Positions 3,413 to 20,435 of a DNA stretch of 25,780 nucleotides are shown here, piece by piece. The position numbers and the translations under genes were made by a program. Each line of letters opens with the position of its first letter. The stretch's first letter is position 1. The notes under the pieces were generated by a model. That model was not told where the DNA came from and ran no database searches. It saw only the letters and a list, made by a program, of their open reading frames with translations. Source of the stretch: an uncultured Pseudomonadales bacterium (GTDB lineage Bacteria > Patescibacteriota > Microgenomatia > UBA1400 > CAYNBK01); assembly GCA_964395485.1 (NCBI GenBank), contig CAYNBK010000001.1:1-25780 (forward strand), read 5' to 3'.

Positions 3413-4611
3413 TAAGCGAGACTTTTAAATTGGCTTTATCGTCGCTCAAAAGCAATAAAATCCGTGCTTTTTTAACTATGCTTGGTATTATCATCGGGGT
3501 TTTGGCGGTAATTTTACTGGTTTCACTCGGCACCGGTCTAAAAAAATACATCACCGATCAGTTTGAAAGTATAGGCACAAATTTGCTATATGTCCTGCCC
3601 GGCCAAATAGGCCAGGAAGGACAGAGCCTTTCCTCCGGTCCACCCAATTTTGCCGGCAGTAAACTAACGCTAAAAGATACACAGGCTATAGCACGCAAAG
3701 GGAAGCCGATTGTCGACGCCACCGCTTTTATCGAACTGCCTGCATCGGTAAAATATAAGTCTGAATCTAAATACATCCGTTTTCATGGGGTTGAAGACAA
3801 TTTTTTTTCCCTGATCAACATAAATATTGAATCCGGCAGACCGTTGTCCAAAAGTGATATCGAAAGCCAAAAAAAAGTAATTGTCTTGGGACAGGAGGTA
3901 AAAGACCGTCTTTTTGGCGAACAAAACCCAATCGATAAAGATGTGTTACTGGCCGATTCCCGCTACCAGGTGATTGGCTTGACTGAGAAAAAAGGTGTGG
4001 GGGGAATCGGCATGAGCTGGGACGACACTGCCTTTATACCAATCACTACTGCCCAAAAACAATTTAACCAGGAAAATGTACAGTCGATCATGATAAAAGT
4101 AGATGATAAAGAAAACATTGATGAAGCAAAAAAAATTATCATCCAGTATTTTGATAAAAAACTTAAAGAAGATGAGTTTTCGGTAGTAGACCAAGCGAGC
4201 CTGCTTAGCACCATAAATTCTATTATTTCTGTTTTGACCCTGGCGCTGGGGGGTATTGCCGCTATTTCGCTTTTGGTTGGCGGGATCGGTATTATGAATA
4301 TTATGCTGGTTTCTGTCACCGAACGGACCAAAGAAATCGGCCTGCGGAAAGCAGTCGGGGCCAAGCCGATTGATATTCTCTGGCAGTTTTTAGTAGAGGC
4401 GATTATTCTTTGTTTGTTTGGCGGCCTTATCGGAATTTTACTCGGATATCTTGGAATGTTTGCCATCAGCAAATTTATTCCGTCCTCTATCCCATTGTGG
4501 TCAGTATTTTTGGCTTTTGGCTTTTCGGCGACTGTCGGTATTATATTTGGCGTGGCGCCGGCGTACAAAGCCAGCAAGCTGGATCCAATAAATGCGCTCA
4601 GACATGAATAA
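3409..4611 (+). CDS. ABC transporter permease (MacB/FtsX family, YknZ-like)
   Basis: FLTMLGIIIGV, large extracytoplasmic domain, GIMNIMLVSVTERTKEIGLRKAVGA, ASKLDPINALRHE. Confidence 0.93.
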   Translation: MISETFKLALSSLKSNKIRAFLTMLGIIIGVLAVILLVSLGTGLKKYITDQFESIGTNLLYVLPGQIGQEGQSLSSGPPNFAGSKLTLKDTQAIARKGKPIVDATAFIELPASVKYKSESKYIRFHGVEDNFFSLININIESGRPLSKSDIESQKKVIVLGQEVKDRLFGEQNPIDKDVLLADSRYQVIGLTEKKGVGGIGMSWDDTAFIPITTAQKQFNQENVQSIMIKVDDKENIDEAKKIIIQYFDKKLKEDEFSVVDQASLLSTINSIISVLTLALGGIAAISLLVGGIGIMNIMLVSVTERTKEIGLRKAVGAKPIDILWQFLVEAIILCLFGGLIGILLGYLGMFAISKFIPSSIPLWSVFLAFGFSATVGIIFGVAPAYKASKLDPINALRHE

Positions 4612-4633
4612 TTAGTAACTAGTAATTGCTAGT

Positions 4634-4738
4634 ATGAAACGGGTAAAAAAATTAGGCTATCGGACATCTAGTATTTTCAGGCGAAATAAAAAACAGCAAG
4701 TCGCTAAAACCCGGGCTAAAGGAGAAAAAAGAAAATAA
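4634..4738 (+). CDS. Putative 34-aa very basic small protein (not in ORF track)
   Basis: MKRVKKLGYRTSSIFRRNKKQQVAKTRAKGEKRK, 15 K/R, fills the permease-tig gap. No SD seen. Confidence 0.35.
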   Translation: MKRVKKLGYRTSSIFRRNKKQQVAKTRAKGEKRK

Positions 4739-4769
4739 ACTATTTTAGTTTTTATTTTTTAATATTTTT

Positions 4770-4778
4770 TGATATACT
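4770..4778 (+). promoter_or_regulatory. Extended -10 promoter, 6 nt before the tig ATG
   Basis: TGaTATACT-tccagc-ATG. Confidence 0.6.
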
Positions 4779-4784
4779 TCCAGC

Positions 4785-5711
4785 ATGAATACAAAAACAA
4801 AAAACGGAAACGATAATAAAAAAGCCGATACTGACAAAAAAGTAAACAGCCAAAAAAATGATTACAAGCTCACCTGGCTTCAGGACAAAACTTTTGAACT
4901 GGAGCTTACTGTCCCAAAAAGTGAAATTTCCAAAGCTTATAAAGAAGTACTGGCAGAATTTGCCAAAAACACCGAACTTCCCGGTTTTCGCAAGGGTATG
5001 GCGCCAGCCAAATTGGTAGAAGACAAGGTAGGGAAAAACAAAATATATAAGCATATTATTGACCATGTTGTCCCACTGCATTACAGCAACGCCGTCAGAC
5101 AATACGGCCTTAAACCGATTGTTAATCCAAAAATAATTGACTTGAAAATGCCAGAAGAGGCAGATTGGCTGATAAAGCTTAGTTCCTGTGAAGCCCCGCA
5201 AATAAAGCTGGCCGACTACAAAAAAGAAGTTGCCGCCATAAATGCCAAAGATAAAATCTGGGTACCGGGCAAAGACGCGACGGAAAAGAATAAACCGGAC
5301 CGCGGCCAAAAACTGACCGCAATAGTCAAAAAACTGCAGGAAAGTATCGAAGTAAAACTGCCGCAGATGCTTTTGGATTCGGAGCGCGACCGCATGCTTT
5401 CCCGCTTGCTAGCGGAAATAAATAAACTTGGGATTACGTTGGACCAATATGTTCAAGCTAACGGTAAAACAGTAGAAAGCCTAAAAAAAGAATATGAAAA
5501 TGTCGCCCGCAGAAACCTGCAAACCGAGTTTATCCTGCAAGAAATAGCCATGACCGAAAAAATTCAAGTTTCAGAGGAAGAAAAAACAGCATACTTGTCC
5601 CAGATAAAAGATGAAGAAAGCAAAAAACAACTATCTACTCCTGAACAGCAAGCATACCTCGGGCTAAGCCTAGTAAGGCAAAAAACTATTGACTTTTTGC
5701 TTTCCATTTGA
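4785..5711 (+). CDS. tig: Trigger factor, short form apparently lacking the PPIase domain
   Basis: Ribosome-binding signature LPGFRKGMAP, C-terminal SurA-like domain (VKLPQMLL...LDQYVQANGKT...ILQEIAMTEKIQVSEEE). Only 308 aa. Confidence 0.9.
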   Translation: MNTKTKNGNDNKKADTDKKVNSQKNDYKLTWLQDKTFELELTVPKSEISKAYKEVLAEFAKNTELPGFRKGMAPAKLVEDKVGKNKIYKHIIDHVVPLHYSNAVRQYGLKPIVNPKIIDLKMPEEADWLIKLSSCEAPQIKLADYKKEVAAINAKDKIWVPGKDATEKNKPDRGQKLTAIVKKLQESIEVKLPQMLLDSERDRMLSRLLAEINKLGITLDQYVQANGKTVESLKKEYENVARRNLQTEFILQEIAMTEKIQVSEEEKTAYLSQIKDEESKKQLSTPEQQAYLGLSLVRQKTIDFLLSI

Positions 5712-5742
5712 TAAAATCCGCCAAATTAGCTGATTTTAATAT

Positions 5743-6426
5743 ATGGACGATATTTTTTCAAAAAACTACCCTCTTACAAACAGCAGCAAGAAAAAAAAGA
5801 CTGCGGTTCAATCTCAAAATTTTATTGAGGCTGTTAGGGATATGGGCGGATCTATCGGCGGTCAGGTAAAAAACCTTGGCTCAGATGTTGCCAGGGGGGC
5901 AATAGATTCACTCTTTGGCAAGGCACCAAGCAATCAAGACAATCAAAACCCAAATAATTATCAAACACCGCAAAACCCCAATCAACCTTTTAATTTTGAG
6001 GAGTATCTTTTTAACCGCGAAAAGCAAATCCGACAACAGGAGCGAAGTTTTGCCTCTCGTATGAGGGAAAATGAAAAAGTATTGTATAATAGGGGAGATG
6101 TAGAGACCAAAAAGCAAATTCGGTGTGTACAGGAAGAGATCGTCAAAATCATCAAAGAAAGCAAAGAATTAGCTACGGAATTGATCGAAGCGGAAAGAAC
6201 CGTCAGCACCACCATTGTTTCTGCTGGCACTTATCATCTAAATTTTTTTGCCAGAGTAAGAAACCTGCTTATTATCGCCAGAAAAAGACTGAGTGAATCT
6301 AAAAGCTGGCTTGAGCTTTTTAACTCCAGACAGCACCGCAAAGGTCTATACTGGAACAGTGTTAAAAAATCCGGCACCAAGTTTATGCTCTCACAAGAGC
6401 GCTATATGGCAACCCAGGCCGGCTAA
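5743..6426 (+). CDS. Hypothetical protein (possibly DUF5660-like, from memory and unverified)
   Basis: 227-aa ORF with an N/Q/P-rich linker, a coiled-coil segment and C-terminal KKSGTKFMLSQERYMATQAG. Confidence 0.6.
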   Translation: MDDIFSKNYPLTNSSKKKKTAVQSQNFIEAVRDMGGSIGGQVKNLGSDVARGAIDSLFGKAPSNQDNQNPNNYQTPQNPNQPFNFEEYLFNREKQIRQQERSFASRMRENEKVLYNRGDVETKKQIRCVQEEIVKIIKESKELATELIEAERTVSTTIVSAGTYHLNFFARVRNLLIIARKRLSESKSWLELFNSRQHRKGLYWNSVKKSGTKFMLSQERYMATQAG

Positions 6427-6482
6427 TAAATTAGCCAGTGCTGAGCAAAGCCGAAGCGCAGTGTAGCCAAGCAACTTTAAAT

Positions 6483-6545
6483 ATGATTAAAAACTTACAA
6501 AAATTATACTTTTACTTTTACGCCTTAGTCAGGAGGGTAAAGTAA
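6483..6545 (+). CDS. Putative attenuator leader peptide MIKNLQKLYFLLYALVRRVK (20 aa)
   Basis: 5 Leu, 2 Tyr and 1 Phe codons. The LLYAL codons overlap segment 1 of the hairpin set. Tandem TAA TAA stop. Confidence 0.7.
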   Translation: MIKNLQKLYFYFYALVRRVK

Positions 6546-6601
6546 TAATGTAGTTTTTTCAAAAATATTATTCCAAACCCCTCCTATTGGAGGGTTTTTT
6601 T
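6514..6601 (+). promoter_or_regulatory. Ribosome-mediated transcription attenuator (1:2, 2:3, 3:4 structures)
   Basis: 1:2 is TACTTTAC 6514-21 / GTAAAGTA 6537-44. 2:3 is AGGAGGG 6531-37 / CCCTCCT 6579-85 plus AATAATG 6544-50 / TATTATT 6566-72. 3:4 is the terminator. Confidence 0.75.
6575..6601 (+). terminator. Intrinsic terminator of the attenuator
   Basis: CCCTCC-TATT-GGAGGG followed by T7. Confidence 0.85.
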
Positions 6602-6626
6602 ATGGTGTTGAAAGGAGGTGATAAAT

Positions 6627-6814: not shown

Positions 6815-6901
6815 ATGTTTATAGACTATATTACACCCTCAAGTATGGAATATTTTCAACTTGAGGGTGTATCTTTTTTAAGATACAATAACTCATTATG
6901 A
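6815..6901 (+). CDS. Putative 28-aa uORF MFIDYITPSSMEYFQLEGVSFLRYNNSL
   Basis: SD GGGAGGT 6804-10. The stop overlaps the aminotransferase start (ATGA). Spans a 13-bp hairpin. Confidence 0.35.
   Translation: MFIDYITPSSMEYFQLEGVSFLRYNNSL
6832..6879 (+). terminator. 13-bp perfect inverted repeat plus T-tract (terminator or operator)
   Basis: TACACCCTCAAGT 6832-44 / ACTTGAGGGTGTA 6859-71, then TCTTTTTT. Confidence 0.7.
6861..6889 (+). promoter_or_regulatory. Sigma70-like promoter of the aminotransferase
   Basis: TTGAGG-17 nt-TACAAT, 8 nt before ATG 6898. The -35 lies in the right arm of the inverted repeat. Confidence 0.5.
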
Positions 6902-8070
6902 AGTATTCTTTTGCCCTAAGAGCCAGAAACATGCAAACTAGCATGCTGCGTGAACTACTAAAACTTACTGATAGGCCTGGTCTTATCTCTATGGCTGGCG
7001 GCTTACCTGCTCCGGAAAGCTTTCCGCTGAAATTGATACTAAATTTAACCCGACTGGTGATTGCTAAATATGGCGCCAATGCCTTTCAATACAGTCAAAC
7101 TGAGGGTTTTTTACCCTTAAGAACCGCTTTAGCCGTTTACCTTAACCATCATCATATTAAATGCAAAACCGAAAATCTTATTATCTCCAGCGGCTCCCAG
7201 GGAATTCTTGATACTATGGGTAAAATTTTTATCAACAAGGGGGATAAGATTGCCGTCGAAGCTCCCACTTATCTGGGGGCCATTCAGGCTTTTAATGCAT
7301 ATGAGCCAAAATATATCAGTCTGAAAACCGATGAAAATGGTATTTTGCCAAATCACTTAGCACGAGTTTTAACAAAGCACCAAGTAAAATTAATTTATCT
7401 TAACCCAACTTTCCAAAATCCCAGCGGTCGGACCTTAAGCAAAGAAAGAAGAATACAGGTGGCAAATATTATAAAAAAACATCGTGTTTTACTGTTAGAG
7501 GACGACCCTTATTCCAGCCTCAGATTTAACGGCAGGGCATTAAGGCCGATTATGAATTTTGCTCCGGAAAATACGGTTTATACCAGCACTTTTTCTAAAA
7601 TATTTGCTCCGGGCTTGAGGGTCGGTTACGCCATTGCTCCGGATAAAGTGGCAAAAATGCTGGTACTAGCCAAGCAAGGCATAGATTTGCACAGCGGCAC
7701 TTTTAGCCAGGCATTAGCGGCCGAATATATTCTGGGGGCTTATATGGATAAACAAATCAAAAAAAACATCAGGCTTTATGCTCCCAGAAAGCAGGCGATG
7801 ATTAAAAATTTGGCAAAATATATGCCGGCTGGCTTTAAATGGTCAAATCCTGATGGGGGGTTGTTTGTTTGGGTTGAAGGGCCAAAAGATTTTGATTCAA
7901 CTAAGTTTTTCCAAAAAGCCATTAACACCGGCGTAGCTTATGTTCCGGGCACATATTTTTATACCAAAAAAGGCGCGGGTAAAAATACCATAAGATTGAA
8001 CTTCTCCAATGTCAATGAAAAAAACATTCAAAAAGGAATAAAAATATTGGCCAATATTATAAAAAACTGA
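6898..8070 (+). CDS. PLP-dependent class I/II aminotransferase (LysN/ARO8-like, no wHTH)
   Basis: ISMAGGLP, SGSQGILD, NPTFQNPSG, EDDPY, PLP lysine in STFSKIFAPGLRVG, IRLNFS. Confidence 0.92.
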   Translation: MKYSFALRARNMQTSMLRELLKLTDRPGLISMAGGLPAPESFPLKLILNLTRLVIAKYGANAFQYSQTEGFLPLRTALAVYLNHHHIKCKTENLIISSGSQGILDTMGKIFINKGDKIAVEAPTYLGAIQAFNAYEPKYISLKTDENGILPNHLARVLTKHQVKLIYLNPTFQNPSGRTLSKERRIQVANIIKKHRVLLLEDDPYSSLRFNGRALRPIMNFAPENTVYTSTFSKIFAPGLRVGYAIAPDKVAKMLVLAKQGIDLHSGTFSQALAAEYILGAYMDKQIKKNIRLYAPRKQAMIKNLAKYMPAGFKWSNPDGGLFVWVEGPKDFDSTKFFQKAINTGVAYVPGTYFYTKKGAGKNTIRLNFSNVNEKNIQKGIKILANIIKN

Positions 8071-8086
8071 TAAAATATGTTTTCTT

Positions 8087-8163
8087 GGGTTCGTAGCTCA
8101 GTTGGCTAGAGCGCTTCGTTGACATCGAAGAGGTCACAGGTTCAAGTCCTGTCGAACCCACCA
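8087..8163 (+). tRNA. tRNA-Val(GAC), CCA encoded
   Basis: Acceptor GGGTTCG/CGAACCC-A-CCA, anticodon arm CTTCG-TT GAC AT-CGAAG, GGTTCAAGTCC T-arm. Confidence 0.97.
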
Positions 8164-8177
8164 AAATATGCTATAAT

Positions 8178-8345
8178 GGGTTTATTGTCTGTTTGTATAT
8201 GGCTTTACCAACCATAAAGTTCGATGGAATCGGACACAGACAAGGGGCAAACCAGCCCAAAAAATGGGGTTAAATGAGTATATTCAGAGTGGAACCGTGA
8301 TTTATATCACCTCTGTACCGAAAGGGCAGGGGTGTTTGTTTTATT
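8178..8345 (+). ncRNA. T-box riboswitch, probably Thr-specific
   Basis: Antiterminator CAGAG 8285-89 / CTCTG 8311-15, 7-nt bulge TGGAACC, GTGAT/ATCAC. Overlapping terminator CACCTCTGT 8308-16 / GCAGGGGTG 8326-34 plus T-tract. Stem I TTGTCTGT/ACAGACAA with GATGGAA distal loop. Candidate ACC specifier at 8251-53. thrS lies downstream. Confidence 0.85.
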
Positions 8346-8357
8346 AGGAGGCAATAT

Positions 8358-8702
8358 ATGAGCCAAGATTTTATTACATCACCGGGGAAAAAAGAATCAA
8401 TGTTAAAAACCTTTAATAGGGGAGTTATTGGCGGAGTAGGCTGGTCTTTTGGCGTCTGTATCGGTTCGATTGTTCTTTGTCTGATTTTTATTTACTTTTT
8501 TAACTATTTTCACTGGGGAAAGTATATACAGTCATATTTTGAAGAACTATTGAAACAAACTACAGCCCAGCAAGTTCAAACTCAGAAAGAGTTATTAAAT
8601 ACTATTATACCGGGTGCAAAAACCGGCACACTTAATATCCCGACAGATTTTTATCCAGAAAATATAGACGAATTACTCAATAACGCTCGAATTAAAAACT
8701 AG
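8358..8702 (+). CDS. Small membrane protein (possibly DUF5665-like, unverified)
   Basis: SD AGGAGG 8346-51, 6 nt spacing. Gly-rich hydrophobic stretch GVIGGVGWSFGVCIGSIVLCLIFIYFF. Confidence 0.75.
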   Translation: MSQDFITSPGKKESMLKTFNRGVIGGVGWSFGVCIGSIVLCLIFIYFFNYFHWGKYIQSYFEELLKQTTAQQVQTQKELLNTIIPGAKTGTLNIPTDFYPENIDELLNNARIKN

Positions 8703-8717
8703 TATAAAAATATATAT

Positions 8718-10517
8718 ATGAAAAACAACAATAAAAGTTTAGAAAATAACAACAGCAAAGATGATAAGCTCTTGGCAATGCGGCACAGCTGTGAACACGT
8801 CCTGCACCAGGCTATGGTCGAGCTCTATCCCGGTTTAAAACGGGCCATGGGGCCGGCGACATCCGAGGGCTTTTATCATGATTTTGATTACGATGGCAAA
8901 ATCAGTGAAGAAGATTTTCCCAGCATTGAAAAACGGATGAAAGAAATAATCAAAGCTGATTTGCCAATAATCCGCAAAGAGATTTCGATAAAAGAAGCTG
9001 AACAATTGTTTAAAGGCAACCCATATAAACAAGACTGGCTTTCAAGAATAAAGGCAAAAGGAGAAAAAGCGACTGTTTACTGGAACGGAAAACCAGGGGA
9101 AAAGGGCTCTGACGTAGACCTATGCAAAGGGCCTCATGTTAGTTCTACCGGCAAAATCGGGCCATTTAAGCTCTTTTTTGTAGCAGGTGCATATTGGCAC
9201 GGAGACGAAAAAAACAAAATGCTGACACGTATCTACGGCACTTGTTTTCCCAGCCAAAAAGAACTTGATCACTATCTATGGCAGCAGGAAGAAGCAAAAA
9301 AACGCGACCACCGGGTACTGGGCCAGAAACTAAAACTCTTTATGTTTGATGAAGAAGTTGGTCAGGGCTTGCCTCTTTACCTGCCAAATGGAGCCATGAT
9401 AAGGTATTTGCTGATGGAGTTTGCCATGAATACCTATTTCCAAAGAGGGTATAAGCCGGTATCGACCCCGCATATCGGCACTGAAGCACTATGGAACCAC
9501 TCCGGACATTTACAATTTTATGCCGACAGTATGTATGGTCCATTTGAAGTTGAGGGCAAACGCTACCGCCTGAAGCCAATGAACTGTCCATTCCATGTAA
9601 AAATGTACAATTCGGAAATACGAAGCTACCGGGATTTACCTATTCGCTGGACTGAAATGGGGACTGTTTACCGTTATGAAAAATCCGGCGAACTGCATGG
9701 ACTGACCAGGCCGCGCGTCTTTACCCAGGATGATGCCCACATTATTTGCCGTCCGGACCAGTTGGAAGATGAACTAAGCAATGCTTTGGATCTGATAAGT
9801 TATATATATCATAGCCTACAGATGGAAAAACTTATTTACAAATTGTCTGTTCGTGACCCCAACAATTTAGACAAATATTTTGGCTCAAGTAAAGACTGGA
9901 GCAAAGCTGAAGACACTTTGAAAAAAGTCCTTATTGATAGCGGCCACAAGGATTATGAGACTGATGTCGGCGGGGCTGTATTTTATGCACCAAAAATAGA
10001 TATAGACGGAGTTGATTCACTGGGCAGACGGTGGCAGCTATCGACTGTCCAGATAGACTTTAATCTGCCATCCCGTTTTAAAATGGAGTACATTGACAAA
10101 GACGGCCGTCAAAAAACACCATTCATGATTCACCGGGCATTGCTCGGGTCGTTGGAGAGATTTTTGGGTGTTTACATCGAACATACTGCCGGTGCTTTTC
10201 CCGTCTGGCTGTCTCCGGTTCAGGTGCAGATTGTCCCGATTGCCGACCGCCATCAGCAGTTTGCCGCCAAAGCCAAAGATGTGCTTACAAGGCTTGGTAT
10301 AAGGGTGGAGCAGGATGACAGATCGCTTTCTATGCAGAAAAAACTAAAAGAAGCCGAAGAGCAAAAAATACCCTTTATGCTTATTGTGGGCGATAGGGAA
10401 GTACAAAATAAAACCGTTTCTGTCAGACAGAGGGGAAATAAGGATTTGGGCGCCCAAAGTCTGAAAGCATTTGGCGAAAAACTAACTAATTTAATTGCTA
10501 ATAAAGCGCAAATTTGA
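8718..10517 (+). CDS. thrS: Threonyl-tRNA synthetase (no N-terminal TGS domain)
   Basis: Editing HSCEH and DLCKGPH, RDHRVLG, LKPMNCP, GLTRPRVFTQDDAH, MIHRALLGSLERF, anticodon-binding domain. Confidence 0.98.
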   Translation: MKNNNKSLENNNSKDDKLLAMRHSCEHVLHQAMVELYPGLKRAMGPATSEGFYHDFDYDGKISEEDFPSIEKRMKEIIKADLPIIRKEISIKEAEQLFKGNPYKQDWLSRIKAKGEKATVYWNGKPGEKGSDVDLCKGPHVSSTGKIGPFKLFFVAGAYWHGDEKNKMLTRIYGTCFPSQKELDHYLWQQEEAKKRDHRVLGQKLKLFMFDEEVGQGLPLYLPNGAMIRYLLMEFAMNTYFQRGYKPVSTPHIGTEALWNHSGHLQFYADSMYGPFEVEGKRYRLKPMNCPFHVKMYNSEIRSYRDLPIRWTEMGTVYRYEKSGELHGLTRPRVFTQDDAHIICRPDQLEDELSNALDLISYIYHSLQMEKLIYKLSVRDPNNLDKYFGSSKDWSKAEDTLKKVLIDSGHKDYETDVGGAVFYAPKIDIDGVDSLGRRWQLSTVQIDFNLPSRFKMEYIDKDGRQKTPFMIHRALLGSLERFLGVYIEHTAGAFPVWLSPVQVQIVPIADRHQQFAAKAKDVLTRLGIRVEQDDRSLSMQKKLKEAEEQKIPFMLIVGDREVQNKTVSVRQRGNKDLGAQSLKAFGEKLTNLIANKAQI

Positions 10518-10538
10518 TAAGATGGGTAGATAAATGAC

Positions 10539-10656
10539 CAATTTTCGATTATCAATTTTCAGAAAATATCAAATTTTTAAATTATCATTTACTTAAACTG
10601 TTTTGAAATTTTAAAATTGTAATTTGTTTGCTTATTGGGGTTTGATAATTGATAAT
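10539..10656. repeat. AT-rich degenerate 7/14-nt repeats arranged as an imperfect inverted repeat
   Basis: CAATTTTC x2 (10539, 10553), TGATAAT x2 (10643, 10650), ATTATCAATT 10548-57 / AATTGATAAT 10647-56. Confidence 0.6.
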
Positions 10657-11956: not shown

Positions 11957-11982
11957 GCCCTCCCTTAGGAGGGCTTTTTTTT
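11957..11982 (+). terminator. Intrinsic terminator after rplT
   Basis: GCCCTCC-CTTA-GGAGGGC followed by T8. Confidence 0.9.
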
Positions 11983-11984
11983 AT

Positions 11985-12075
11985 GTCATTACGGGGAGTC
12001 CAAACTAATGTCGGGACAAAGAAGCAATCTTAACCGGGATTGCTTGGGCCCGATTTAATCGGATCTCGCAAAGGC
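11985..12075. repeat. Degenerate REP-like palindromic element
   Basis: AAGCAATC 12022-29 / GATTGCTT 12038-45, CCGAT-TTA-ATCGG 12050-62, decayed GTCATTACG / CGCAAAGGC ends. Confidence 0.6.
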
Positions 12076-17997: not shown

Positions 17998-18669
17998 ATG
18001 CCAATCCGCCAAACGCCGCTTGTTACCAGCCATTATTACCATATTTTTAACCGCAGTATTGCCAAGATCCCCATTTACCTTTCCATTCCCGATCATTTAA
18101 GGTTTTTAGAAATAATGCATTTTTACCAATACCAAAACCCGCCTTTAGCCTATTCTCATTTTAAAGACTTGGCCAAAGAAAGGCAGGCAAAATTTATAGC
18201 TGGTCTTAGTAAAAACAAACAAACTCTTGTCGATGTCATTTGCTTTTGCCTTATGCCAAATCATTTTCATTTAATTCTGAAACAAAACCAGGACAAAGGC
18301 ATTTCGGATTTCTTAGGTAATATCCAAAATAGCTATGCCAAATATTTTAATCTCAAAAGAAAACGGACGGGTTCATTGTTTCAAAGCGGTTTTAAAGCCG
18401 TTCTCATCGAAGACGATGATCAACTAAAACATGTCTCGCGTTATATTCACCTCAATCCTTATACCTCAATGTTAATCTCAAAGCCTGAAAACCTAAATCA
18501 ATATTTATGGTCTTCATTTTCTCAATACACTGGTATAAAAAATGGTTTTTGCCAGTGCGGAATAATTTTGGATCAATTTAAAAGCCGGGCAGAGTACAAA
18601 TCTTATGTACTTAATATGGCGGATTATCAAAAAAAATTAGGGGAGATCAAACACTTAATAAAAGAGTAA
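17998..18669 (+). mobile_element. HUH/Y1 transposase (REP-associated tyrosine transposase / IS200-like)
   Basis: YYHIFNR, FCLMPNHFHLIL (HUH), GSLFQSGFK, catalytic RYIHLNP, YLWSS. No tnpB nearby. Confidence 0.88.
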
Positions 18670-19146: not shown

Positions 19147-19179
19147 TAGCATATAAATCCCGATGTTTGGTCGAGACTC

Positions 19180-19192
19180 AACCCCCGGGGTT
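19180..19192. repeat. Inverted copy of the 17943-17955 palindrome core
   Basis: AACCCC-C-GGGGTT is the reverse complement of AACCCC-G-GGGGTT. Confidence 0.7.
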
Positions 19193-19247
19193 TAGATTGA
19201 CACTGGATAGACAAAAAGAATATTATCAATTAAAATCAAGGATAACT

Positions 19248-20435
19248 ATGGACAAAATTGATGAGCTATTAACCAGGAGAGTAGATACTGTTTACCCAAA
19301 CAAAAAAAGCTTGGAAAAAGTGCTTAGATCCGGAAAAAAACTCCGTCTCTATCAGGGCTTTGACCCGACCGGCGGCCGCCTGCACTTGGGCCACACCGTC
19401 GGCATCCGCAAACTGATGGAGTTTGCCGCTCTCGGGCATGATGTGATTTTCCTTTTTGGGGACGGGACAGTGCTAGTGGGCGATCCATCAGAAAGAGAAA
19501 AGGGCCGAAAACTCCTCAGTGAAAAGGAAGTGTCAGAAAACGCCAAGGGCTGGATAAACCAGGTAAAAGCACTGGTGGATTTTTCCAAAGTCCGTACGCT
19601 CCACAACAAAGACTGGCTGACCAAACTCACGCTCAAAGACATTATCAATATCGGCTCCAAAATAAGTGCAGTTCAGCTTTTTAAACGAGACAACTTTTCC
19701 AAACGGATAAAAAGGGGCGATACTGTCTGGTATCACGAGACCATGTATCCGCTTCTGCAAGGTTATGATTCGGTGGTGATGGACGTAGACATGGAGATCG
19801 GCGGCACCGACCAAATGTTTAATATGCTAGTCGGCCGGGAGCTTCTTCACAAATTTAAGAATAAAGAAAAGTTTGTGATGACCACTAAGATGATCCTTGG
19901 CACAGACGGCAAGACCATGAGCAAAACCAGCAATAACTGCATTTGGCTCAATGACGCACCAAAAGACATGTATACCAAGCTGATGGCCGTCAAAGACGAG
20001 CTAATACCCGACTACTTTGAATTTTTTACCAATATCCCCATGGAAGAAGTAAAAAAGATTGTCAAGGGCTTATTAAACAATACTCTGGATCCGCTAGCTA
20101 CCAAAAAACAACTGGCCTTCACCATAACGGCCGACATTCATGGCAATGTCAAAGCTGAACAGGCTCAAACAGAGTTTGCCAAAGTAGTACAAAAAGGCCA
20201 AACGCCGGCAAATATTCCTGTTTTCCCATTAAATAAACTTTCCCAAAACCCGATTGGTCCTATCGACTTGCTAAACGAAACAGGGCTAGTATCGAGCCGG
20301 TCTGAAGCAAAAAGACTGATAAAACAGGGTAGCATAGAGTTAAATAGAAAAAAGATATTACTTTTTAAGAGTTTAAAAATCTCCTCGGAGGACTTAGTCC
20401 GCTCCGGCAAGAAAAAGTGGATAAGGTTAAAATAA
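19248..20435 (+). CDS. tyrS: Tyrosyl-tRNA synthetase
   Basis: YQGFDPTG, HLGH, YPLLQGYDS, IGGTDQMFN, TMSKT, S4-like C-terminus. ATG 19248 is preferred over TTG 19167. Confidence 0.97.
   Translation: MDKIDELLTRRVDTVYPNKKSLEKVLRSGKKLRLYQGFDPTGGRLHLGHTVGIRKLMEFAALGHDVIFLFGDGTVLVGDPSEREKGRKLLSEKEVSENAKGWINQVKALVDFSKVRTLHNKDWLTKLTLKDIINIGSKISAVQLFKRDNFSKRIKRGDTVWYHETMYPLLQGYDSVVMDVDMEIGGTDQMFNMLVGRELLHKFKNKEKFVMTTKMILGTDGKTMSKTSNNCIWLNDAPKDMYTKLMAVKDELIPDYFEFFTNIPMEEVKKIVKGLLNNTLDPLATKKQLAFTITADIHGNVKAEQAQTEFAKVVQKGQTPANIPVFPLNKLSQNPIGPIDLLNETGLVSSRSEAKRLIKQGSIELNRKKILLFKSLKISSEDLVRSGKKKWIRLK

Follow-up and report, generated by a model that had tools for sequence, protein, structure and literature searches.

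T-box riboswitches are a model system for the RNA–RNA recognition of tRNA identity and charge. Sherwood et al. reportedly described, in 2015, the class III T-boxes of Nocardia farcinica and Mycobacterium tuberculosis ileS. In the current classification, class I T-boxes combine a long Stem I, which carries an elbow platform, with Stem II, class II (glycine) T-boxes are without Stem II, class III T-boxes (ileS of Nocardia and Mycobacterium) display the specifier in the 5–6-nt apical loop of a short Stem I and require Stem II, and class IV T-boxes have an intermediate Stem I (PMC10482949). For fast tRNA capture, transcriptional T-boxes generally depend on the platform of a long Stem I, and T-boxes with a truncated Stem I are translational and need Stem II; an antiterminator without Stem III shows no appreciable tRNA binding, and Stem III is flanked by 5'-RRRxG ... 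AA-3' directly before helix A1 of the antiterminator (PMC7583486). A G-U wobble at the base of helix A2, next to the bulge, has been described as a steric sensor of the aminoacyl group. Our literature search found no publication tying T-boxes to the Candidate Phyla Radiation (CPR) or Patescibacteria.

Within the window, by which we mean the whole 25,780-nt stretch of DNA that was analyzed, a 194-nt leader separates a tRNA-Val gene from a 114-aa ORF. Positions 8185–8342 of this leader (~160 nt) most probably constitute a compact T-box-type transcription attenuator of an operon made up of the small ORF and thrS. The features of the locus are as follows.

6898–8070, + strand: aminotransferase gene, listed for gene order
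8087–8163, + strand: tRNA-Val(GAC) gene with A73, the upstream neighbor of the leader
8169–8177, + strand: extended -10 promoter TGCTATAAT, by direct reading, with a predicted start near 8184
8185–8243, + strand: truncated Stem I domain in the MFE fold, comprising helix P1, a 5' internal loop, the specifier hairpin and an inserted hairpin
8198–8216, + strand: specifier hairpin UAUGG-CUUUACCAA-CCAUA, with a 5-bp stem and a 9-nt apical loop
8219–8235, + strand: variable inserted hairpin GUUCGAU-GGA-AUCGGAC, containing GAUGGAA, by comparison with homologues
8245–8271, + strand: probable Stem IIA/B-like pseudoknot, from the Rfam alignment of L003 and a pseudoknot search in relatives
8270–8278, + strand: conserved A-rich linker motif UUAAAUGAG, family consensus AAAUUAAG, from alignments A4 and A7
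8285–8315, + strand: T-box antiterminator, by direct reading and covariance model
8308–8342, + strand: intrinsic terminator, by direct reading and folding
8346–8351, + strand: strong Shine–Dalgarno sequence AGGAGG of the small ORF
8358–8702, + strand: small ORF of 114 aa (entry 8346..8702 including the Shine–Dalgarno sequence), a predicted membrane protein and the putative first controlled gene
8718–10517, + strand: thrS, threonyl-tRNA synthetase (ThrRS) of 599 aa, with Pfam domains tRNA_SAD, tRNA-synt_2b (class II core) and HGTP_anticodon

The product of the small ORF has no match in Pfam, and tblastn searches with it returned weak matches only (E 0.002 or worse). The thrS gene, which defines the leader family described below, begins 15 nt past the small ORF and is followed on the + strand by infC, rplT, pheS and pheT, in that order; the operon under control is most likely the small ORF followed by thrS. 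The best relatives of the encoded ThrRS come from Candidatus Beckwithbacteria and other CPR metagenome-assembled genomes, and the source bacterium is a Microgenomates-like member of the CPR (Patescibacteria).

In its predicted architecture, the element is closest to the class III T-boxes. As in those leaders, Stem I is short and lacks the interdigitated T-loop platform, the specifier is displayed in an apical loop, and a UGGN bulge lies between helices A1 and A2; a candidate pseudoknot located where Stem IIA/B would be may add to the likeness. However, the class III ileS leaders are Ile-specific, actinobacterial and translational, acting via Shine–Dalgarno sequestration, whereas the window element would be Thr-specific, belongs to the CPR and has an intrinsic terminator at its 3' end; the apical loop measures 9 nt rather than 5–6 nt, and an additional helix, P1, closes its Stem I. 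Class III T-boxes also need, for tRNA binding, a Stem II with an S-turn that is situated between Stem I and the IIA/B pseudoknot, and they keep Stem III, neither of which is recognizable in the window. The likeness to class I and II T-boxes (Bacillus subtilis tyrS, thrS and glyQS; RF00230) lies in the mutually exclusive antiterminator and terminator with a default OFF state, the UGGNACC bulge whose N matches the discriminator base, the specifier followed by a purine and the aminoacyl-tRNA synthetase gene under regulation, but the window element lacks their long Stem I, with its K-turn, internal specifier loop, AG bulge and distal loop, as well as their Stem III.

The output end of the element can be read directly. 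Helix A1 pairs CAGAG (8285–8289) with CUCUG (8311–8315), helix A2 pairs GUGAU (8297–8301) with AUCAC (8306–8310) around the loop UUAU, and the 7-nt bulge UGGAACC (8290–8296) lies between them, its 5' UGGN adjoining A1 as in T-boxes generally. When both strands of the window were scanned with a strict pattern for this bulged hairpin, it was the single match. The 3' strands of A2 and A1 also form the 5' strand of the terminator, giving the overlap (an 8-bp helix) seen in transcriptional T-boxes: the terminator stem pairs CACCUCUG (8308–8315) with CAGGGGUG (8327–8334), has an inner CC-GAAA-GG and is followed by the U-run UUUGUUUU (8335–8342). Because the terminator (-16.3 kcal/mol in ViennaRNA) is stronger than the bulged hairpin (-7.9 kcal/mol), the default state is predicted to be termination. 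The Shine–Dalgarno sequence lies beyond the U-run and is free of the terminator hairpin, an arrangement at variance with the translational output of class III. The A2 pair adjoining the bulge is G8297-C8310 in the window, not a G-U wobble, and across the family the same pair (columns 204/240) is G-C in 15 sequences, A-U in 7, U-A in 2 and G-U in 1.

Homologous leaders were sought in 160 loci encoding relatives of the window ThrRS, split evenly between genomes and metagenomes (80 each). The strict scan recovered an A1–UGGNACC–A2 hairpin upstream of thrS in 28 of these loci, with helix sequences that differ each time, and most of the 28 also carry a short hairpin with the loop NNUNACCAA located 45–100 nt upstream of the bulge. 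A full-length MAFFT alignment of 23 leaders (alignment A1) misaligned the bulge in five of them and was rebuilt from a 13-sequence subset (alignment A4), with the structure set by hand. We constructed the covariance model R1 from 13 CPR thrS leaders; neither the window nor the leaders most similar to it (L003, L083 and L084) were included. Against the held-out window, R1 matched 8177–8318 over its full model length (50.8 bits, E 7.7e-12) and placed ACC 8207–8209 in the specifier loop. Across 1.8 Mb of sequence from the 160 thrS loci, it returned 29 locus matches at E<=0.01 (30 table rows when the window is counted), every one of them on the thrS strand and within ~400 nt upstream of the start of the thrS match. 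This leader is absent from L001 and L082, whose ThrRS is the most similar to that of the window (73% identity).

Covariation was assessed in an alignment of 25 matches that was fitted to R1 and therefore favors structure; in it, all 15 modelled pairs, distributed over three helices, have changed on both sides (10 of 10 in A1 and A2; 5 of 5 in the specifier stem), and both the slid controls and the hand-checked MAFFT alignment agree with this result. Paired cells amount to 93%, compared with 28–49% when partners are slid by 1–3 columns, and none of 500 shuffles reaches the observed covariation. This pattern bears on the alternative that survives best, in which the element is a decayed, non-switching T-box remnant, serving as a constitutive and possibly leaky terminator after the loss of its tRNA-capture and charge-sensing parts. 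The element does lack an elbow platform, a Stem II S-turn, Stem III and the G-U wobble at the base of A2, and it has UU before A1, all of which would suit a remnant. Yet many divergent CPR lineages, whose ThrRS is only 48–65% identical, have retained this reduced design, with compensatory changes in every modelled pair and with the specifier and bulge invariant. A remnant would not be so maintained, and we regard this reading as improbable.

The predicted specifier is ACC 8207–8209, displayed in the apical loop of the hairpin at 8198–8216 and followed by A8210 and A8211, so that a Thr codon plus purine stands in a leader with thrS downstream. The apical loop reads NNUNAC(C/U)AA in 23 of 23 members, with ACC in 21, ACU in two (L049 and L045) and AA always next; the change from ACC to ACU, the sole variation of the triplet among members, is synonymous only in the Thr reading frame. 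The anticodon of tRNA-Thr(GGU) is complementary to ACC. The second match to a tRNA is in the bulge, where UGGA 8290–8293 is complementary to a 3' UCCA, that is, to a tRNA with U73; among members the bulge begins with UGGA in 20 and UGGG in three, and the latter still pair with U73 via a G-U wobble. Across all loci, ARAGORN found U73 in 15 of 15 tRNA-Thr genes (GGU and UGU anticodons) and A73 in 77 of 81 tRNA-Val genes, the 15 tRNA-Thr genes coming from related CPR loci, none of which carries the leader. U73 of the host tRNA-Thr is deduced from these relatives because the host gene is not in the window, and an exact-protein look-up led only to a 2.5-kb contig identical to window positions 8059–10579. 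On the strength of these sequence matches, we infer that the ligand of the leader is tRNA-Thr and not the neighboring tRNA-Val with its A73.

Up to this point, the original prediction, made from the letters of the DNA, is borne out. Its antiterminator of 5 bp, UGGAACC bulge and 5 bp overlapping a strong terminator is confirmed by direct reading and folding; its assignment of a T-box-type leader is upheld by the 50.8-bit match of a model built without the window; its suggestion of Thr specificity agrees with the identity of the downstream 599-aa gene product as ThrRS; and its deduction that UGGA calls for a U73 ligand, excluding tRNA-Val, is matched by the 15 related tRNA-Thr genes.

The two tRNA matches are also what separates the leader from a ThrRS-binding operator of the kind that autoregulates Escherichia coli thrS, a reading under which the T-box-like hairpin would merely be part of an attenuator. 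Hairpins with conserved apical loops do lie upstream of thrS, and the two systems would have in common a structured thrS leader, functional hairpin loops and feedback control involving ThrRS. However, the E. coli operator mimics the anticodon arm of tRNA-Thr and binds protein, whereas the window leader displays the complementary codon, along with a sequence to which the 3' end of the tRNA could pair. Its conserved loop shows the Thr codon ACC/ACU and not an anticodon-like NGU recognized by ThrRS, and only pairing to the 3' end of a tRNA accounts for the invariant UGGNACC bulge and its U73 match. We consider such an operator very unlikely.

The original prediction had interpreted the 5' domain along the lines of a canonical class I T-box. 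In the MFE fold, helix P1 pairs UUGUCUGU (8185–8192) with ACAGACAA (8236–8243) and encloses a 5-nt 5' internal loop (8193–8197) in addition to the specifier hairpin. Most of the 23 family members have a helix of differing sequence where P1 lies in the window, and per-sequence shuffle tests of P1 were not significant for most sequences, including the AT-rich window, so that the closing helix is to be taken as likely only, from its positional support. A K-turn or S-turn in the internal loop (5' UGA or GUA, 3' AAG) was considered and rejected, as the sequence fits neither consensus. The hairpin at 8219–8235, the only extra hairpin of the window leader, lies inside P1 and is not conserved: it is missing in L003, L087 and L058 and of unrelated sequence in L083, L084, L100, L032 and L049. 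No AG bulge or distal-loop motifs are present in the window leader.

[quoted passage not shown] An ACC-A is indeed found at 8251–8254, GGG and CCC are able to pair, and the MFE fold has a closing helix of the GGG...CCC type. Nevertheless, GGCAAACCAGCC forms a hairpin of its own in the window, and the identical sequence in L003 is aligned to Stem IIA by the Rfam T-box model; this motif, with ACC 8251–8253 inside the hairpin motif GGGCAAACCAGCCC, occurs in only 7 of 23 members, against an apical-loop ACCAA hairpin in all. The GAUGGAA hairpin is a non-conserved insertion, Rfam yields no Stem I alignment, and the promoter of relatives sits directly before P1. Taken as a whole, a canonical class I T-box is slightly harder still to sustain than an operator. 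The ACC triplets at 8207, 8211 and 8251 listed in the original prediction are all present, but the one favored there as specifier, within CAA-ACC-A 8248–8254, falls in the loop of the hairpin aligned to Stem IIA in L003, and the specifier assigned here is the 8207 triplet, which had been listed only among the others. Homologues likewise lend no support to the long Stem I drawn with GGG at its base and GAUGGAA as its distal loop.

The promoter evidence is in keeping with a compact element. The extended -10 motif and the predicted start near 8184, both already given in the original prediction, stand; this start would fall one to three bases before P1, and the structured element begins at ~8185. 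The absence of a good -35 explains why a generic promoter scan missed the motif. In relatives, too, a promoter immediately precedes P1, as with TTGACA-17-TATAAT in L003 and L084, and we propose that the leader is transcribed from its own extended -10 promoter. The loss of the Stem I base from such transcripts, once viewed as an oddity, is none, as GGG 8178–8180 lies outside the RNA structure; the worry that the promoter truncates Stem I came from the wrong Stem I model. With the predicted start just upstream of the compact element, and with the relatives' promoters in the same position, there is therefore no need to invoke two isoforms through read-through from the tRNA-Val promoter.

Rfam model RF00230, a check suggested with the original prediction, gave no match in the window at its gathering score of 93 bits, nor did 8000–8500 yield one at E<=10. 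On 8175–8345 the match was local only (14.6 bits, E 0.21), covering model positions 187–216, which correspond to the antiterminator alone. The close relative L003 scored 44.3 bits (E 7.8e-9), with antiterminator and Stem IIA aligned, and no short-Stem-I relative tested reaches the gathering score. Canonical T-boxes do occur in CPR genomes, with RF00230 scores of 100.6 bits in L070 and 65.5 bits upstream of thrS in L034. The short form thus represents a design that is derived or alternative, and not a detection limit in the phylum.

Among related thrS loci of the CPR, 23 of 152 have Thr-rich leader ORFs followed by terminators. Ribosome-mediated leader-peptide attenuation of this kind, which resembles the E. 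coli thr-operon type in sensing Thr-tRNA charging with a terminator as output, is the least credible reading of the window, where AUG 8199 opens a 24-codon frame, but such attenuators need a translated run of Thr codons, and this frame has a single Thr codon, no Shine–Dalgarno sequence and no conservation, because its AUG stems from the UAUGG stem, which is ACGG, CCGG or UAGA in other members.

We return to the compact T-box-type attenuator and to the segment between its Stem I and antiterminator. Positions 8245–8271 probably form a Stem IIA/B-like pseudoknot, in which candidate helix IIA pairs GGGC (8245–8248) with GCCC (8255–8258) around the loop AAACCA, and candidate helix IIB pairs AACC (8250–8253) with GGUU (8268–8271). 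A scripted search found the expected H-type pseudoknot at the same position in L142, L126, L030, L148, L062, L045 and L008; pairings among members include CCCC/GGGG, CCACU/AGUGG and UUAUCUGA/UCAGAUAA, and those of L032 (CCCAC/GUGGG) and L111 (ACUC/GAGU) were paired by eye only. In the window, the best pseudoknot called by the script was CCA/UGG and not AACC/GGUU, whose spacer exceeds the limit set in the search. The combination of GGGC/GCCC and AACC/GGUU is feasible there but does not stand out from shuffled sequence, with 60 of 100 shuffles equalling or exceeding the score of the window. A Stem II S-turn was not recognized, and in L003, L087 and L058 Stem I runs directly into the IIA hairpin; an unrecognized functional substitute for it is possible.

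Downstream of the pseudoknot, the columns of the A-rich linker motif are nearly invariant in alignments A4 and A7, and by analogy this motif may be the counterpart of the purine string flanking Stem III in canonical T-boxes. Only UAUAUU (8279–8284) separates its AAAUGAG from A1, which is too short for a hairpin and leaves no place for Stem III, and A1 is directly preceded by UU where AA is conserved in T-boxes. A candidate interaction between the 5' UUAAUU and the distant AAAUUAAG motif, checked by eye, was set aside, given mismatches in the window and no compensatory changes seen.

From the anatomy, the family membership, the covariation of three helices, the match of codon to gene and the match of bulge base to discriminator, we infer tRNA binding, aminoacylation sensing and a regulatory outcome along the following lines. 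[quoted passage not shown] This second pairing would stabilize A1 and A2 (8285–8315), whose 3' halves would be withheld from the terminator. With these halves unavailable, the terminator (8308–8334 plus the U-run) would be blocked, and RNA polymerase would consequently continue through to the small ORF and thrS. If tRNA-Thr were charged, or tRNA absent, the terminator would form and transcription would stop.

A bolder proposition, which we advance tentatively and rate as possible, if just short of probable, is that a minimal transcriptional T-box of the CPR decides termination with two tRNA contacts only, the anticodon kissing loop on a truncated Stem I and the NCCA at the bulge, without an elbow platform, a Stem II S-turn or Stem III, parts that current structural work deems necessary for rapid capture of tRNA and for charge sensing. 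If true, the essential core of the T-box mechanism would be smaller than thought; alternatively, a factor provided by CPR cells may stand in for the absent parts, or these may be dispensable when RNA polymerase is slow. As the leader family lacks three parts viewed as needed, it offers a natural minimal construct of ~130–160 nt for testing these requirements. The current Rfam model misses this family, and a new covariance model would both improve the annotation of CPR genomes and reveal aminoacyl-tRNA synthetase regulation in these reduced genomes.

The placement of the terminator also varies among the homologues. In some relatives, for example L058 and L030, the T-box hairpin lies inside the helix of the terminator and does not compete with it, a layout that would need an undescribed switching principle.

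In 13 to 14 members of the family of CPR thrS leaders that combine an A1-UGGNACC-A2 hairpin with a short specifier hairpin, the helix preceding the U-run encloses the T-box hairpin rather than competing with it. One strand of this enclosing helix lies just 5' of A1 (the lower helix of the antiterminator), in the position that Stem III would occupy, and the other lies 3' of A1; the two strands covary across these members. Standard terminator/antiterminator competition cannot operate where the helix is arranged in this manner. Two of the loci, L087 and L100, share the decoding domain of the window leader, yet adopt the enclosing-helix layout.

Loci with the enclosing-helix layout (L-numbers denote the 160 genomic and metagenomic loci encoding relatives of the window's ThrRS)
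L030, L032, L049, L052, L058, L060, L062
L070, L087, L100, L126, L142, L148
L058 2086-2150, example of the layout

The leader is patchily distributed even among close lineages, since the closest ThrRS relatives, L001 and L082 from Candidatus Beckwithbacteria (73% identity), have no T-box-like leader before thrS (about 9850-10000), the order being tRNA-Val, approximately 90 nt and then thrS. The placement of tRNA-Val(GAC) immediately 5' of thrS recurs at many of the loci and represents a synteny conserved in CPR genomes, with tRNA-Val contributing 81 of the 187 tRNA genes at the 160 loci. The window copy (8087-8163) is preceded by a promoter-like site of its own (8047-8076; TTGGCC-18-TAAAAT, with TG), and no terminator separates this tRNA gene from the leader.

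Of 152 CPR thrS loci, 23 have, within 500 nt upstream of thrS, a short leader ORF in which a stretch of seven codons contains five or more for Thr (maximum 7/7), and in several of them, such as L081 and L007, a hairpin followed by a U-run was seen by eye after the ORF. These loci show classical ribosome-mediated attenuation of thrS, which takes the place of a T-box.

Loci with Thr-rich leader ORFs
L006, L007, L014, L015, L020, L054, L057, L064, L066, L074
L077, L080, L081, L090, L091, L107, L114, L115, L125, plus others

At L047 (9484-9650) and L149 (74-240), a short-Stem-I Thr T-box-like leader is directly followed by a Thr-rich leader ORF (MLKVNRKTTTTTTPF...), approximately 350 nt upstream of thrS. 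These two leader types in series are predicted to constitute tandem control.

A canonical long-Stem-I T-box with a UGGU bulge was identified in L070, a Collierbacteria contig (4009-4254; RF00230, 100.6 bits). Downstream lies an ORF (4315-6612) for a 765-aa protein whose sole Pfam match is PPDK_N, an unusual target for a T-box.

UGGUACC hairpins resembling that of L070
L073 16749
L075 20028
L030 13595
L002 19092

Returning to the window, the ORF between the leader and thrS has no Pfam match and is weakly similar (E 0.002 to 0.3) to small thrS-adjacent ORFs in L092, L030 and L142. The leader has been located in two of these loci, L030 and L142, and there the small ORFs sit upstream of it. No T-box was detectable in the window before tyrS or pheS (12101).

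Further features of the window
8358-8702, predicted 114-aa membrane protein between leader and thrS, with a strong Shine-Dalgarno sequence
17998-18669 and 19167-20435, IS200/Y1-transposase-like ORF and adjoining tyrS

A hairpin with a U-run was also observed downstream of rplT, at about 11960-11985.
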